A stretch of DNA of 63,837 bases, counting the filler, from Octopus bimaculoides (lineage: Eukaryota), in assembly GCF_001194135.2 (NCBI RefSeq). It is 6 parts of 5 records of this genome, joined end to end, with 100 filler letters (N's around TTAATTAATTAA, not from the genome) between each part and the next. Parts side by side here need not be neighbours in the genome. Positions count along the whole stretch, not along the records: positions 12,022 to 42,425 come from NC_068983.1; positions 42,526 to 49,136 come from NC_068997.1; positions 49,237 to 57,648 come from NC_068983.1; positions 57,749 to 60,905 come from NC_069004.1; 2 more parts are not named here. One strand, written 5' to 3'. The translations under genes and the position numbers were made by a program. Shown in pieces: positions 18,338-58,935 of this stretch (the first letter of the stretch is position 1; each line of letters starts with the position of its first letter). The notes below the pieces were generated by a model. The model saw only the letters and a list, made by a program, of their open reading frames with translations, searched no databases and was not told the origin of the DNA.

Positions 18338-18385
18338 GTCTCTGATGAAGGGATATCCCTAATATCCCAGAAACAGCTGTAAAAC
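18338..18385 (+). ncRNA. Minimal type I hammerhead ribozyme motif (family 3), slightly degenerate
   Basis: GTCT-CTGATGA-A-GGGATAT/ATATCCC-A-GAAA-CAGCTG-TA-AAAC: 7-bp stem II, palindromic stem III ACAGCTGT, GUA site, stem I 3 of 4 pairs, extra A before GAAA. Confidence 0.6.
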
Positions 18386-19451
18386 TAACTTTCTCTTTAA
18401 AAATGTACTGAATATTCTACACACCCTTGGCTTTGTTGTCTCAATTTATTTAACCCCCCCACACACACACACGCACACACACACACATATATTTATATTG
18501 GCATACATACATATATATAAATATAGGCATACATATATGTGTGTATGTACACACACACACACACGCACACGCACACAGACACGCACACGCACACAGACAC
18601 GCACACAAAGATATATTCAGGAAGATAAGCGAGTGTGTTTGTGCGCGCGTGTGTGTGTGTAAATATTCCATTGTGAACCAGAGGCAGTAAAGAGAGCACT
18701 CAATACTGACGATCAAGTTATGTAAATTATATATGCGCGTATGAATGTGTTTACGAATACACGTGCGCGCGCGAGATTGTGTGTATGCATGAAAACAGAG
18801 GTGGAGACAGAAGAAGAAGAAGAAGAAGAAGAAGAAGAAGAAGAAGAAGAAGAAGGGGAGGAGTCTCGCTCTACTGGATAACTTAGCAGGCTACCCCACC
18901 CCCTCCTAAGTGCTCGGTTCTTATTGCCTCTCGCTTACTCAATTGCATTGGACCACAGCACTATGCATATCTCGTTTTCACACGCAATCATTGGGAAGAG
19001 GAGAAATGGGAGGTTGCAGTGTTTTGAGTACGAGACTTAGTTGTCGGAAAAAAACACAAAAAAAAAAAAATCTCAGAAAAGCCGTTCCTAGTCATTTTTT
19101 TCAAAGATATATATAAATACACATATAAATATATATACATATATATGTATATATATATATATAGATTCAAGATTGAATATGGTACTTATGCGTAGGCACC
19201 AGAATATCGTATGGTATGGTATTATACAAAAACCATTCCAAAAGGATAGGTGATCAAAAAATCAAAATAAGCAACACGGATTTCAAAGATGATTGCAGTA
19301 CACACGTTTCATGCTACTCCATTTATTTAAGTAATGTGAGCATTACATTAAGTAATATATATATATATATAATAATACAAATAATATGTGAGTATATGCA
19401 TGTATACGTACATGTATGTACATACCTACATCTACATGTATATATAGATGC

Positions 19452-19482
<31 letters not shown>

Positions 19483-20348
19483 NNNNNNNNNNNNNNNNNN
19501 NNNNNNNNNNNNNNNNNNNNNNNNNNNNNNNNNNNNNNNNNNNNNNNNNNNNNNNNNNNNNNNNNNNNNNNNNNNNNNNNNNNNNNNNNNNNNNNNNNNN
19601 NNNNNNNNNNNNNNNNNNNNNNNNNNNNNNNNNNNNNNNNNNNNNNNNNNNNNNNNNNNNNNNNNNNNNNNNNNNNNNNNNNNNNNNNNNNNNNNNNNNN
19701 NNNNNNNNNNNNNNNNNNNNNNNNNNNNNNNNNNNNNNNNNNNNNNNNNNNNNNNNNNNNNNNNNNNNNNNNNNNNNNNNNNNNNNNNNNNNNNNNNNNN
19801 NNNNNNNNNNNNNNNNNNNNNNNNNNNNNNNNNNNNNNNNNNNNNNNNNNNNNNNNNNNNNNNNNNNNNNNNNNNNNNNNNNNNNNNNNNNNNNNNNNNN
19901 NNNNNNNNNNNNNNNNNNNNNNNNNNNNNNNNNNNNNNNNNNNNNNNNNNNNNNNNNNNNNNNNNNNNNNNNNNNNNNNNNNNNNNNNNNNNNNNNNNNN
20001 NNNNNNNNNNNNNNNNNNNNNNNNNNNNNNNNNNNNNNNNNNNNNNNNNNNNNNNNNNNNNNNNNNNNNNNNNNNNNNNNNNNNNNNNNNNNNNNNNNNN
20101 NNNNNNNNNNNNNNNNNNNNNNNNNNNNNNNNNNNNNNNNNNNNNNNNNNNNNNNNNNNNNNNNNNNNNNNNNNNNNNNNNNNNNNNNNNNNNNNNNNNN
20201 NNNNNNNNNNNNNNNNNNNNNNNNNNNNNNNNNNNNNNNNNNNNNNNNNNNNNNNNNNNNNNNNNNNNNNNNNNNNNNNNNNNNNNNNNNNNNNNNNNNN
20301 NNNNNNNNNNNNNNNNNNNNNNNNNNNNNNNNNNNNNNNNNNNNNNNN

Positions 20349-20399
<51 letters not shown>

Positions 20400-20710
20400 G
20401 TATATATATGTATGTATGTACGTATCTATGTATTTATGTACATACATATATGTATTTATGTATGTACATATGTATGCACGTATATATATGTATCTATGCG
20501 TGTATGCATGTGTGTATGTATGTGTGTATGCATGTATGTGTGCGTGTATATATGTATGTGTGTGAGTATGTAAGTATAAAAAAAGATAAATCCTCGAATT
20601 TGCATGTATTTTCATTACGTAAGTTTTTTTCTGTAAAATATATATATAAAAAAGCAGACGAGCATCAAGACGGAATATTAGGGTCTTATGCTCAAGGGGC
20701 TAAAAGGTAG

Positions 20711-20742
<32 letters not shown>

Positions 20743-20872
20743 GCTACACAAAATACCAGTAATGGTTCTTTCGTTCTGAGTAAAGTTACGTCTGTTTTTT
20801 TCGAAATAAAATGAGATATACTCGCGCGCACTTACAAAAACATATTCACTGTTATTATTGTAATTTTTTGTT

Positions 20873-20965
<93 letters not shown>

Positions 20966-21116
20966 GCGTTTGCGTGCGAGCACGTGGACTATTGTATTAA
21001 AACTGGAATAACTACATAATGTGTTTCCAATAATATATGAGATCAGTGAAGGGTTTTGAAGCACATCTTAATATATTCATATATAAACCTATATATATAC
21101 ATATATACTACACACA

Positions 21117-21190
<74 letters not shown>

Positions 21191-21312
21191 TTGCCGCTAC
21201 TGGTGCTGCTGCTGCTACTACACACACACAGTGTGTGTGGTATATTTCTGTATATAGACATATATATATATGTATGTATATACGTATGTATGTATATATG
21301 TGCATCAATATC

Positions 21313-21373
<61 letters not shown>

Positions 21374-56074: not shown

Positions 56075-56156
56075 TTATGATATAGAATTCCCTGATTTCT
56101 TTGGACTTATTATTATAAGTTAAAATTGACGAAAATCAGGGAATTCCATATCATAA
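56075..56156. other. Hairpin with a 24-bp stem (23 of 24 matched) and a 34-nt loop containing an inner stem
   Basis: TTATGATATAGAATTCCCTGATTT (56075-56098) versus AAATCAGGGAATTCCATATCATAA (56133-56156). Confidence 0.85.
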
Positions 56157-56160
56157 GCGC

Positions 56161-56254
56161 TTCATATTGTTTCACCTTGTGATGTTAGAGGTTAACTTCT
56201 ATTCTAATTCATATTGCTTCCCCTTGTGATGTTAAAAGTTAACTTCTGTTCTAA
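56161..56254 (+). repeat. 47-bp direct tandem duplication
   Basis: Units 56161-56207 and 56208-56254 differ at about 5 positions. Confidence 0.92.
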
Positions 56255-56869
56255 TATACAATGTTCGGAGATTCTGAAGCGTATTCTGTGCTTTTGAAAT
56301 ATTTAGCAGTTTTACGAGGAACTGTCAATGCTTAGACACGCGAGGTTGATATAGAATATAGAAAAAGATATTGTCTAGAAAAACTTTCATAAGTGTTTTG
56401 ATTATCTCTTCTAAGACGGTATCACGTGTACCTCCAAGGAATTCACATGTCAGCTTAATCAAATGAATTTGATACAAAACACAGCCATTACGACATATAT
56501 ATTTCTTGTTTTGTACACACTGTTTGATTTGACTTAGCATCATAATGGCAGTGCTGCTACAATAATGTCAACTGTACTGTTGTGATTACAATACTTTACA
56601 ATTATGGCAATATAGTAGTGAAGAGAAATTTAAGAATAAATATCCTGCACAGTTAAAAATATTACTGTATCAGAGTGGATTCATCTACAGTTTACTATAA
56701 AGTCTGCATTTTTTATATATCACCGATGTTGTCTGCTTTCACAGCAGTGTGATCTATGCTGTTTTATGCAATGAAAACTCAATGTTTATTTTTTTAATGT
56801 TTTGAGTATTCAAAGTTATTAGCTAAGGCATTGTAGTTTTTATTTTGGGTTGCAGCCTACGCTACTTAA

Positions 56870-57105
56870 TGGAGGTGCAATGGCCCAGTAGTTAGAGCAG
56901 CGGGCTCGCCGTCATAGGATTGCGGTTTCGATTCCCAGACCGGGCGTTGTGAGTGTTTATTGAGCGAAAACACCTAAAGCTCTACGGGGCTCCGGCAGGG
57001 GATGGTGGTGAACCCTGCTGTACTCTTTCACCACAACTTTCTCTCACTCTTTCTTCCTGTTTCTGTTGTGCCTATAATTCAAAGGGTCAGCCTTGTCACA
57101 CTGTG
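56870..57105 (+). mobile_element. tRNA(Arg)-like SINE, family C
   Basis: Aligns along its length to 2142-2385. Confidence 0.9.
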
Positions 57106-57343
57106 CGACAGAGTGCCAACAACAACATGCTACTTAATGATACCTGCACGATTAAATATTTGACTTGTGTCGCAGGTTGCAAAAGGCAACACGTATGTGA
57201 CAGAGTAGCTTCTTTTATTTCTTCCTTGAAGGAAACAAAAGCAAGTAGCCTTATAAATATGAGCGAAATATAGAAATGTAACCGAATATATGTGTAAGTT
57301 TGTATGCTATGTATGTAAAATATGTATATGTATGTATGTGTAA

Positions 57344-57380
<37 letters not shown>

Positions 57381-57781
57381 TTTCAATTTATACTATTATT
57401 ATCAACGGTTACTCATTTTAATATCTATCACTTCTTATCGTAACTCATCATTCTATATTCATAAAACTTGTTGCTATTTTCTATTTTATCTATTGAATCT
57501 TTCTCTGTAAATATTTAAAATATATTTAGCTTTAACTTTTAAAACTGATATACAAGATGACAGTATTAACAATATATTTGATGGCAACAAATTTAGAATC
57601 AGCTAGATTGTAACTTGATAAAACAAGGACTTCTCTTTCTAAAATACCNNNNNNNNNNNNNNNNNNNNNNNNNNNNNNNNNNNNNNNNNNNNTTAATTAA
57701 TTAANNNNNNNNNNNNNNNNNNNNNNNNNNNNNNNNNNNNNNNNNNNNATATATATATTTATGTATATATGTGTTTATGTA

Positions 57782-57822
<41 letters not shown>

Positions 57823-58579
57823 GTATATATGTGTATATATATATATGTATATATATATATTTATGTATATATATATATATATGTATGTATGTACGTATGT
57901 ATGTATGTGATAAAGAGAGAGATGGGGTGGGGGAGATATGCGTAAATAGAGGAAAGAGAGCGGGCGGGAGAGAGAGAGAGAGCAATGGCTTATAAATAGA
58001 AGGTTCTAAAGAGTGGGATGCAAATTTGGAAAAAGTGTGGGATGACCGAGCTAATTGCAGGTAAATGGATTCATTGACGCAATGTGCTAGAAATAGCATT
58101 CGAGTCTACCTCAAATTATAATCTCGACATCCTTTAAAAACAAACGGAAGAACACATTGGATAATGTAGACATATATAGAGATTGTCTGAATTTTGGACG
58201 AGTTGGTTATGAACGGAGCAAAACACATCTTGACTAGAGGTTTGCTGGATCAAGAGTGACCCGAGACAGGACAACAAACTGGACAATGAGAGAAATATCG
58301 AAGGAGCAGGAGCTCATGGGCCGCCATTATTTCTGTAAACCTATTCATGTTCCATTGTCGTTGTTGTTGTCGTTAAGCGACAGATCTGTTCTGATTGAAT
58401 AATTAACTCAAGACCAAAGAAGTTCCACTCGTGACTATCACATCTTTTAATTATCAGGTGTAACTGTGTAGCAAGTGGTTTGCTTCCCAATGTTCCAAGT
58501 TCAGTCCCACTGCCTGGCACCTTGGACGAGTATCTTCTACTCTAGTCTCGGGCACCCTAAACCTCGGGCACCCTAAACC

Positions 58580-58739
58580 TCTTGACCCCAGTACGTAATT
58601 GGTACTTAATTTATCGACCCCGAAAGGATGATAGGCAAAGTCGACATCGGCGGAATTTGAACTTCAGAACGTAACGGCAGACGAAATACCGCTAAGCATT
58701 TCGCCCGGCGTCCTAACGTTTCTGCCAGCTCGCCGCCTT
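58580..58739 (-). mobile_element. SINE family A, 3'-truncated, abutting a SINE B head at 58465-58560
   Basis: Clear consensus match; 16-bp tandem duplication CTCGGGCACCCTAAAC at the junction (58547-58578). Confidence 0.9.
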
Positions 58740-58895
58740 TTGGCCAACCCTGTATATTGATGTGTGTGTGGTGGGGTGGGGTGCGTCCATGTTGTACGTG
58801 TTGTGTGTATGTACGTGTGTATGTTGTGTGTGTATGTGTGAGTGTGTTTGGACAAAACAAAACAAAAACCAAAAAAAAAAAAAAACCATTAACAA

Positions 58896-58935
58896 GACTA
58901 GTTTCAGACCCGCGTCGAGATATCATCAGGGATCA
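58896..58935 (-). ncRNA. Degenerate hammerhead-like motif (family 5)
   Basis: CTGATGA-TATCTCG-ACG-CGGGTCT-GAAA-CTAG-TC: core, ACTAGT palindrome and GUC site present; stem II damaged; no stem I partner. Confidence 0.4.

Follow-up and report, generated by a model that had tools for sequence, protein, structure and literature searches.

Nine hammerhead-type motifs lie at positions 18338 to 58935 of a 63,837-nucleotide stretch of Octopus bimaculoides DNA (six genomic parts joined end to end, here called the window), which raises the question of what kind of element brought them there. A reading made from the sequence alone had taken them for about five unrelated families of minimal type I hammerheads with a palindromic stem III, carried by a very dense and diverse population of Penelope-like elements (PLEs) that included retrozyme-like units, with intronic copies that could cleave host pre-mRNA. 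We conclude, with a probability of about 85%, that the motifs are minimal type I hammerheads in PLE 3' repeats, as seen for families C and D and as is likely for A, B and E, and that they survive in short, 5'-truncated insertions that are likely mostly dead.

All nine motifs are in type I order with a palindrome after GAA (9/9), and they do form five sequence-unrelated families, A to E (Table 1). They represent at most seven insertions, because B1/B2 and C2/C3 are each the arms of one inverted insertion. The window holds one motif per 6.4 kb and one exact core per 11.5 kb. A descriptor requiring CUGANGA, GAAA, a palindrome of at least 4 nt and H gives five matches from four families, against a mean of 0.17-0.19 and a maximum of 2 in 400 local dinucleotide shuffles of the window and in a set of 1000 shuffles; five of the seven exact core pairs are palindromic, compared with 7% in the 1000 shuffles. 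When both a core with at most one mismatch and the stems are demanded, four matches remain (shuffle mean 0.015). A loose stemless descriptor is chance-prone, its 14 matches (including three alternative registers and three stemless matches) comparing with a shuffle mean of 3.4 and a maximum of 11.

Table 1. Features of the window; motif positions in the text are those of core C3 unless stated
Feature	Positions	Strand	Core C3	Remarks
Family A minimal hammerhead	18337..18386	+	18342	exact core
Copy B3	24212..24380	-	24347	other subfamily, ~81% to B1
Family B inverted pair, left arm, hammerhead B2	30197..30422	-	30311	H17 30285
Family B inverted pair, right arm, hammerhead B1	30423..30718	+	30589	H17 30615
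Copy C1	38380..38541	+	38454	exact core; 5'-truncated
Family C main arm, hammerhead C2	51137..51361	-	51252	H17 51217; intact motif
Penelope/Poseidon-type (putative) GIY-YIG fragment, second half	51534..51599	-		86-91% to P0156/P0157 over 22-23 aa
Same GIY-YIG fragment, first half	51595..51753	+		HMM iE 1.5e-29
tRNA-like stretch	51751..51800	+		anticodon-arm and T-arm geometry; high copy
Family C inverted 5'-truncated arm, hammerhead C3	51801..51981	+	51888	H17 51923
Family D PLE ORF, 5'-truncated, frameshifted	54159..55148	+		RT thumb, C-x4-C-x2-C linker, GIY-YIG
Family D hammerhead	55336..55377	+	55342	194 nt after ORF stop; exact core
Family E motif	58891..58935	-	58929	exact core; palindrome ACUAGU (6 nt)

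The earlier observation is confirmed, with qualifications for the core and for stem I. Box 1 of the core is exact in A, C1, C2, D and E (5/9; the core was judged from the window copies for A, D and E and as a family majority for C), but it has decayed in B3 and carries U at position 6 in B1 and B2. Stem I has at least four contiguous core-adjacent pairs in B1, C1, C2, C3 and D (5/9), but is interrupted in A, B2 and B3, and two core-proximal pairs are broken in E. An exact core and both stems are retained together in C2 and D only. Every B and C copy (6/9) has an unpaired base after A9 and a G10.1-C11.1 pair, as in the minimal hammerheads described by Cervera and De la Pena (2014, PMC4209133), whereas stem II of A, D and E is opened by A.A or U.U, each one change away from the A-U pair of the published unbulged shrimp row. 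Stem covariation is seen between families only; compensatory changes within a family were found neither in any row of B nor among the listed rows of C. Rfam hammerhead models were absent among the 150 of 415 matches listed and from a further Rfam search. In cofolding, only A, B3 and D form a dimer in which the palindromes of the two copies pair with each other; the minimum free energy dimers of the other motifs use other pairings.

Two families tie the motifs to coding elements. The ORF upstream of the family D hammerhead, truncated in the RT thumb, is 55-63% identical to residues 372-697 of P0002 (698 aa; RVT_1 plus GIY-YIG) and matches it in four tblastn pieces (E 7e-86). The hammerhead itself has a 6-bp stem I and a weak 3-bp stem II opened by U.U; its palindrome (AGCGCU) and H17 (A) are those of the shrimp PLE row in the supplement of PMC4209133, and the element continues to (CA)n at ~55500. 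The C-x4-C-x2-C linker occurs in the family D fragment and in 13 of 13 matches longer than 650 aa, whereas no zinc-finger linker precedes the domain in P0153-P0155, fragmentary relatives of family C in which no Pfam RT or GIY-YIG match was found. Judged by the CX2-5CxxC linker of Craig et al. (2021, PMC8557442), the family D ORF would be of Neptune/Nematis type and the family C fragment of Penelope/Poseidon type, names that are drawn from the linker motif.

In family C (palindrome ACGU), the GIY-YIG fragment adjoins both arms of an inverted pair (51169-51361/51779-51971). The main arm holds the end of the tRNA-like stretch, (AAT)n, hammerhead C2 and a tail of ~30 nt (51137-51168), which the pair has on this arm only; in RNA reads, family copies continue into this tail more often than into any other sequence (1680 reads, X21). 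The other arm holds (AAT)n and a hammerhead with an A9 to U change, and its 5' start is the tRNA-like stretch, placed between the GIY-YIG fragment and the hammerhead. The A9 change is private to this copy, since the family majority keeps an intact core (A9 in 2945/3061 reads of X21 and in 99.6% of the contig depth of X2). The first half of the GIY-YIG fragment is locally inverted relative to its continuation, reads and contigs joining 51598/51600 to 51746/51748 on opposite strands, and the second half reads towards a 172-N gap (51362-51533) and arm C2. That gap is close to the ~190 nt needed to complete both the domain and, on its 5' side, the tRNA-like stretch, an estimate based on the 43 residues that follow the matched part in P0156 and on a loose end in the read data. 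Copy C1 stands apart, with a 5-bp stem I, one mismatch in stem II and 11-bp direct repeats on its flanks (38369-38379 and 38542-38552).

Family B, also with the palindrome ACGU, forms a second inverted pair (30197-30702), whose left arm lacks the last ~15 nt of the right arm. The high-copy part of the right arm (30512-30718) ends at (TA)n. B1 has a 5-bp stem I, a bulged A and a 4-bp stem II; B3 keeps stem II and ACGU, has three mismatches in box 1 and abuts (TA)n at its 3' end. The family fails one core feature, because position 6 is U rather than A. U6 is found in >85% of aligned reads or depth in four of four runs from two organisms, every other letter stays below 15% at 30589-30595 in each of these runs, and an alternative register offers no stems. 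Family A has an 8-nt palindrome (ACAGCUGU), a 7-bp stem II opened by A.A and an interrupted stem I; its element ends ~75 nt downstream in (C)n/(CA)n, and its 5' side is lost in an N gap. Family E, with both stems broken beside the core, is the weakest of the nine and may be a chance match. Two HMMs and tblastn found no PLE ORF remnant beside A, B or E within the window; the link to PLE ORFs holds for C and D, where the hammerhead is seen in the 3' repeat of an element with RT and GIY-YIG. The insertions bear the marks of endonuclease-positive (EN+) PLEs: 5' truncation (also in D) and, in the B and C pairs, an inverted truncated copy and a tail on one arm.

From sequencing data, B and C are very high-copy, at a rough ~10^4.5-10^5.3 copies each. 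Depth in X2 rises from 0.2-0.8 million over the endonuclease fragment to 3.9 million over the hammerhead and 11 million at the 3' end. CpG decay affects 10-25% of reads or depth at G12 and 12-28% at the C of the palindrome, which is what copies free of selection should show. B and C copies are embedded in host RNA, 69-74% of RNA reads continuing into unlike flanks, and no short stand-alone transcript of either is evident in these reads. They show no read-end pile-up at the B or C cut sites, and the RNA/DNA depth ratio no dip there; as fragmented RNA-seq of unclear strandedness is insensitive to cleavage, this leaves inactivity unproven. Most copies are likely inactive. The PLE reading is supported by enrichment over shuffles, the family D ORF match, the family C GIY-YIG fragment, the inverted pairs and the depth gradient, and PLE-type hammerheads in a dense, diverse population are borne out.

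How such a population could arise may be outlined as follows. Every family carries a hammerhead of its own whose helix III is self-complementary, and wherever an RT-GIY-YIG ORF is visible the hammerhead lies downstream of it. If an active master is transcribed in tandem, the palindromes of two hammerheads would come together as a single helix III, and slow cleavage after H17 would release the element RNA (compare PMC4209133). Integration would begin at the RNA 3' end and usually stop early (PMC8557442 and the anatomy seen here), leaving ends of 140-250 bp, often as inverted pairs with the tail on one arm and often in microsatellites; copy number would therefore rise towards the 3' end and the hammerhead become massively over-represented. 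Copies then decay, notably at CpG in the palindrome and at G12, and host transcripts carry them along as passengers; lone or opposite-strand copies would rarely cleave in vivo.

A possible, though unlikely, alternative is that B, C or both are independent non-autonomous, SINE-like elements mobilised by PLEs rather than mere truncation products, with C transcribed by Pol III from the tRNA-like stretch and B copied as a ~205-bp unit. Depth over B climbs ~40-fold within 20 nt at 30505-30524, where many copies begin after (TA)n or other sequence, and in a few B reads the 3' end is followed directly by the start of the unit (five at one of the joints listed, two each at a few others, from 3312 and 2585 reads in libraries not made for circles). 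In C the stretch has the geometry of a tRNA 3' half, and in reads an A-box-like run precedes it on the 5' side; the (AAT)n that separates it from the hammerhead body is covered by ~90-175 RNA reads in each run, and at least three contigs join 51788 to that body, but (AAT)n is masked in the read alignment and the linkage is therefore only partly shown. Moreover, the tRNA descriptor is not significant window-wide (one match against a shuffle mean of 0.33), and neither ARAGORN nor Rfam calls the stretch. Upstream of it the reads carry one dominant sequence (agreement 0.86) and not random flanks, and since it is flanked by the GIY-YIG fragment and the hammerhead, it is best placed within the 3' repeat of the coding element. 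The lack of an evident short stand-alone transcript and the unlike flanks of most RNA reads also count against SINE-like units. A bolder combination is doubtful when its three parts are taken together: that the hammerheads of octopus genomes, several hundred thousand in number and owed to two odd PLE-derived families, are the densest population seen so far; that B, despite a non-canonical U6 core, multiplied to tens of thousands of copies in more than one species and retained all three helices, its fold then being maintained either for slow cleavage or for some non-catalytic role, for instance RNA dimerisation or RT recognition; and that C is a PLE end with a captured tRNA-derived Pol III promoter, a Penelope-mobilised SINE.

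It is very unlikely that some copies are active, host-relevant ribozymes cutting pre-mRNA, for example through ACGU pairing across families in a long transcript. ACGU is common to B and C, same-strand copies lie 6-21 kb apart, family copies occur in host RNA, and both stems are retained with the core in C2 and D. Yet the ACGU duplex is weak (-1.7 kcal/mol), even dimers and trimers of a minimal hammerhead cleaved poorly in vitro in PMC4209133, the cut sites show no depletion and CpG decay is as unselected copies would show. The suggested intronic cleavage is unsupported, as no host exon or gene was identified in the window (a weak negative); moreover, one transcript cannot hold both paired copies in sense, since the arms lie on opposite strands. 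Highly improbable, too, is the view that the units are retrozymes, short tandem repeats whose hammerhead-excised monomers circularise: short non-coding units with type I hammerheads and the handful of back-joined B reads would suit it, but no tandem array (score 120 or more) overlaps any motif in the window, the pairs are inverted and not head-to-tail, and the motifs belong to the minimal PLE type, set apart in PMC7229834 from the canonical retrozyme type. Truncated PLE ends explain the short units, because these have PLE insertion hallmarks. Chance matches in AT-rich repetitive DNA are next to incredible as a general explanation: the loose descriptor has its shuffle background, and ~1/6 of shuffled windows hold one exact core with palindrome, which could account for E, but the shuffles, the ORF linkage of C and D and stems conserved family-wide in reads rule chance out for A-D.

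The preferred reading, truncated PLE ends, places the motifs in a known class, and the sequence-only reading overstated their novelty, since PMC4209133 already describes minimal hammerheads in the pseudo-LTRs of metazoan PLEs with many families per genome, thousands of copies, a helix III that is palindromic and pairs on opposite strands at distances of 100-700 bp; its supplement includes molluscs (Lottia, Crassostrea), and a single schistosome motif gave no detectable cleavage there. The octopus motifs share the type I order, short helix I, palindromic helix III, and mostly dispersed single copies with opposite-strand pairs and few ORF-adjacent copies. They differ in a density ~10-fold above published examples, in copy numbers of roughly 50,000-200,000 per family (B, C) against the ~2,000-9,000 reported per genome, in the family-wide U6 of B (the core variant described in the text of that paper is U3-A8), and in the tRNA-like stretch between ORF and hammerhead in C. 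Strong 5' truncation, the inverted truncated 5' copy, the one-end tail, microsatellite targets and the GIY-YIG at the C terminus agree with the insertion structure that PMC8557442 gives for EN+ PLEs, which include the Penelope/Poseidon and Neptune/Nematis clades, but the one-sided extension in B is ~15 nt, not 30-40. Metazoan non-LTR retrozymes (Cervera and De la Pena 2020, PMC7229834), with up to 120,000 copies in axolotl, are likewise short, non-coding, type I and numerous, but consist of 170-400-nt units repeated head to tail, with hammerheads of the canonical type and abundant circles; such arrays and hammerheads were not seen here, and the few back-joined B reads are the only hint of circles in libraries not made for them. 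Schistosome SINE-like repeats with a Pol III promoter, reviewed in PMC6765202, resemble family C in that a tRNA-like or Pol III-type stretch precedes a hammerhead; they are tandem, with cleavage shown, whereas the family C hammerhead is of the minimal PLE type, with a GIY-YIG fragment upstream of it and an inverted structure of PLE type.

The motifs are thus of a kind already described but unusually dense, and that density, the family-wide U6 in B and the tRNA-like stretch in C remain the oddities. What PLE minimal hammerheads do in vivo is an open question (PMC7761336), and PMC8557442 suggests that they may not be needed for PLE spread. An intact-core family C and a core-variant family B, both at very high copy in one genome, provide a natural comparison that bears on whether catalysis matters for PLE amplification. 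With 893 of 900 recently active SINE families listed as unclassified (PMC13282606), PLE ends may also make up some of the short octopus repeats that are annotated in this way.

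All nine hammerhead motifs of the sequence-only reading, assigned to five families (A to E, copies numbered), are recovered from the window and are real and correctly recognised. The window consists of AT-rich animal DNA, includes 6332 N and is rich in microsatellites and dispersed repeats. With perfect stems required, a first strict scan recovered just 2 motifs, and among the 150 of 415 matches listed from an Rfam scan of the whole window, mostly to microsatellite-like miRNA models, there is no hammerhead. Five sites, from four families, combine the exact core and GAAA with a palindrome of at least 4 and H, versus a mean of 0.19 and a maximum of 2 in 400 local dinucleotide shuffles of the window. 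The claim of a very dense population is supported. Palindromes are found in 5/7 exact core pairs, compared with 7% in 1000 shuffles. A loose descriptor free of stems is chance-prone (14 matches; shuffle mean 3.4, maximum 11), and its stemless matches at +29806, +38759 and +56274 were dropped. Also dropped was GAA-ACGU-U at +7077, -58722 and -62725, which lies inside SINE heads and lacks core box 1.

Hammerhead motifs and family C element features in the window
Feature	Position	Strand	Evidence or remark
Family A hammerhead	core C3 at 18342	+	descriptor scan
Family B copy B3	core C3 at 24347	-	descriptor scan
Family B copy B2	core C3 at 30311	-	descriptor scan
Family B copy B1	core C3 at 30589	+	descriptor scan
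Family C copy C1	core C3 at 38454	+	descriptor scan
Family C copy C2	core C3 at 51252	-	descriptor scan
Family C copy C3	core C3 at 51888	+	descriptor scan
Family D hammerhead	core C3 at 55342	+	descriptor scan
Family E motif	core C3 at 58929	-	descriptor scan
GIY-YIG fragment, first piece	51595-51753	+	HMM iE 1.5e-29; between inverted C arms
GIY-YIG fragment, continuation	51599-51534	-	same fragment, opposite strand
Family C plus arm	51751-51981	+	inverted 5'-truncated copy, 95% identical, without tail

The motifs vary in quality. The core is exact in 5/9; stem I, said to be retained in most, has at least 4 contiguous pairs in 5/9, and only C2 and D combine the core with both stems. In family E the core and palindrome are exact and both stems are broken; since about 1 in 6 shuffled windows gives an exact core with palindrome, this motif may be a chance match. 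Two motif pairs are arms of single insertions, and the window therefore holds at most seven insertion events in 57,505 called bases.

Two families are linked to ORF remains of Penelope-like elements (PLEs); no ORF was found in the window beside families A, B and E. Directly 5' of the family D hammerhead, with 194 nt between stop and hammerhead, is a decayed ORF whose GIY-YIG match is weak (E 0.0018, below the Pfam cut-off). A word-based protein search with this fragment returned no relatives, although full HMMER found 605 at E <= 0.001. Residues 372-697 of one relative, P0002 (698 aa, domains RVT_1 and GIY-YIG), match 54159-55118 with 55-63% identity (E 7e-86), the alignment being broken by frameshifts into four pieces. 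The fragment begins in the RT thumb and carries a C-x4-C-x2-C linker, a type that characterises Neptune and Nematis PLEs according to PMC8557442. The palindrome and cut-site nucleotide (H17) of family D are identical to those in a shrimp PLE row of the PMC4209133 supplement.

In family C the ORF is represented by a GIY-YIG fragment, whose sole named protein match is an Octopus vulgaris hypothetical protein (81% identity to 51625-51744). Reads and contigs join its two pieces on opposite strands (e.g., 204 reads of RNA run X21 at 51598/51748), showing that the first piece is locally inverted in the window; this inversion, 51600-51748 relative to other family C copies, is either a true rearrangement or an assembly artefact by the gap. 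The minus arm consists, in order, of the endonuclease end, a 172-N gap, a tRNA-like stretch, (AAT)n, the intact C2 and a tail, which in RNA reads is the commonest continuation of family C copies. The inverted arms with their one-sided tail match the PLE arrangement drawn in PMC8557442. C1 is a solitary truncated copy flanked by 11-bp direct repeats. The tRNA-like stretch is a candidate only: its descriptor has 1 match in the whole window versus a shuffle mean of 0.33, which is not significant, ARAGORN predicts 0 genes, and Rfam gives nothing relevant in 51540-52700.

Analyses of reads and contigs covered families B and C. The family C core is intact across reads, with A9 kept in 2945/3061 X21 reads and 99.6% of the depth of DNA contig set X2; among the rows listed, CpG changes reach 10-25% at G12 and 12-28% at the palindrome C. 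Family C is just as abundant in another organism (run X14), and metagenome scans gave 0 matches to its motif and no confirmed relative of its endonuclease. At 51920, in the palindrome, a 3-nt deletion is present in about 9% of RNA reads (389/4475; 339/3718) and at most 0.3% of DNA contig depth, likely reflecting one or a few well-expressed loci with a disabled hammerhead. Further opposite-strand joints, at 51896-51951 (155 X21 and 136 X22 reads) and 51932-51961 (66 and 45), occur in RNA only, with none in two DNA contig sets, and may come from an inverted insertion that is expressed or be an artefact of reverse transcription.

Together, B1 and B2 make up a hairpin whose centre lies near 30422, and B3 belongs to a different subfamily. 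The high-copy unit of family B is 30512-30718, with (TA)n at its end. On both arms in the window, family B follows a lower-copy repeat, 30425-30514 (depth in two organisms about 10,000-27,000), which in many contigs leads into other sequence; this repeat may be the upstream part of the parent element of B. The 5-bp stem I, bulged A, G10.1-C11.1, 4-bp stem II and ACGU agree with the published consensus of minimal type I hammerheads (min-HHRs; PMC4209133 supplement), from which family B differs in having U at core position 6. At all positions of core box 1 other letters stay below 15% in 4/4 runs, which include one further organism (X16) at low depth. An alternative register with the core starting at 30592 was ruled out, having neither stem I nor stem II. 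Because a natural A6C hammerhead variant cleaves at under 0.1 per minute (PMC3088659), the family B ribozyme is likely slow or dead; PMC11014351 gives no information on core position 6.

In three RNA runs, B and C are covered about equally in both directions, and 69-74% of their reads run on into unlike flanks. No pile-up of read ends is seen anywhere along B or C in these runs, and the RNA/DNA depth ratio across family C has no dip at the cut site. This fits copies of B and C that are passengers in host transcripts, but RNA libraries of this kind are insensitive to cleavage. Two stop-free, non-repetitive frames, 53757-54050(-) of 98 aa (no Pfam or Atlas match) and 16327-16674(-) of 115 aa (no Pfam or protein match), are possibly host exons or chance; both results are weak negatives, and with Pfam run on 28 of 275 ORFs no host exon was identified in the window, which leaves the proposed intronic placement of copies hypothetical. 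For 52850-55480 no RNA data set was listed, which speaks neither for nor against transcription.

Other repeats are abundant. A SINE-like family of about 170-230 bp, which presumably resembles octopus tRNA-derived SINEs, is found at 6852-7280, 33109-33560, 62505-62943 and about a dozen more places. Its copies form two head-to-head inverted pairs (6872-7220 and 33109-33560) and, once, a tandem dimer with a period of 217. Two copies of a repeat, 2139-2375 and 56867-57103, are 92% identical and share a B-box-like motif, located at 2197 in one and 56925 in the other; the repeat is probably a tRNA-derived SINE. The ORF fragments 29295-29705(+) (only weak HTH matches in Pfam) and 61933-62508(-) (no HTH match) are presumably Tc1/mariner transposase remnants, and 23309-23569(-), 45488-45637(+) (neither with a relevant Pfam match) and 48669-49184(-) presumably LINE reverse-transcriptase or endonuclease remnants.

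Summed over contigs, depth comes to 2-4 million for family B and 4-11 million for family C, against about 35-70 for single long contigs. Division by depth gives about 48,000-61,000 copies of the B core and 75,000-214,000 of C; as summed depth is not copy number, these are orders of magnitude only, as is the figure of about 120,000 obtained by scaling 3 copies in 57.5 kb up to the 2.3 Gb of the contig sets. The densest published cases correspond to about one hammerhead per 75-170 kb of genome, about ten times sparser than the window. Reported counts include about 2,000 and 1,300 in Schistosoma, 4,000 in coelacanth and 9,000 in Xenopus (PMC4209133), and more than 6,000 in 16 families in coral (PMC7229834). 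Expansion of PLEs is reported for Octopus vulgaris (PMC13282606), and Penelope is among the expanded coleoid families (PMC8967140); we found no mention of hammerheads where these two papers treat that expansion.

The suggested retrozyme-like units, head-to-tail non-coding repeats with a hammerhead, are not supported, as no tandem structure is found at the motifs within the window. The motifs are instead an already described kind of system: the min-HHRs of PMC4209133 likewise comprise many unrelated families per genome, with palindromic helix III, opposite-strand pairs and few ORF-linked copies. Their proposed role is to free PLE RNA from tandem precursors; single min-HHRs did not cleave in vitro and dimers cleaved weakly (PMC4209133; review PMC6765202). 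Paired copies in the window lie on opposite strands and so cannot dimerise within one transcript. At -1.7 kcal/mol, the ACGU duplex is weak next to those of A (-11.1) and D (-8.3). What is seen directly is the motif anatomy, the linkage of families C and D to ORFs, the truncation, the inverted pairs, the one-sided tail, the high copy number and the CpG decay. Integration would begin at the 3' end and abort early, and in each family the hammerhead-bearing end would thus be amplified more than the rest of the element. Among the papers listed by literature searches, no title or abstract opening describes octopus PLE hammerheads or a tRNA-like stretch in the PLE pseudo-LTR (pLTR); published supplements may cover them, as may Lunse et al. 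2017, which reportedly treats dimer cleavage of PLE hammerheads and may already include octopus examples or A6 variants. What remains of interest is the density, as a quantitative matter, the family-wide U6 in B, and the candidate tRNA-like stretch in C.
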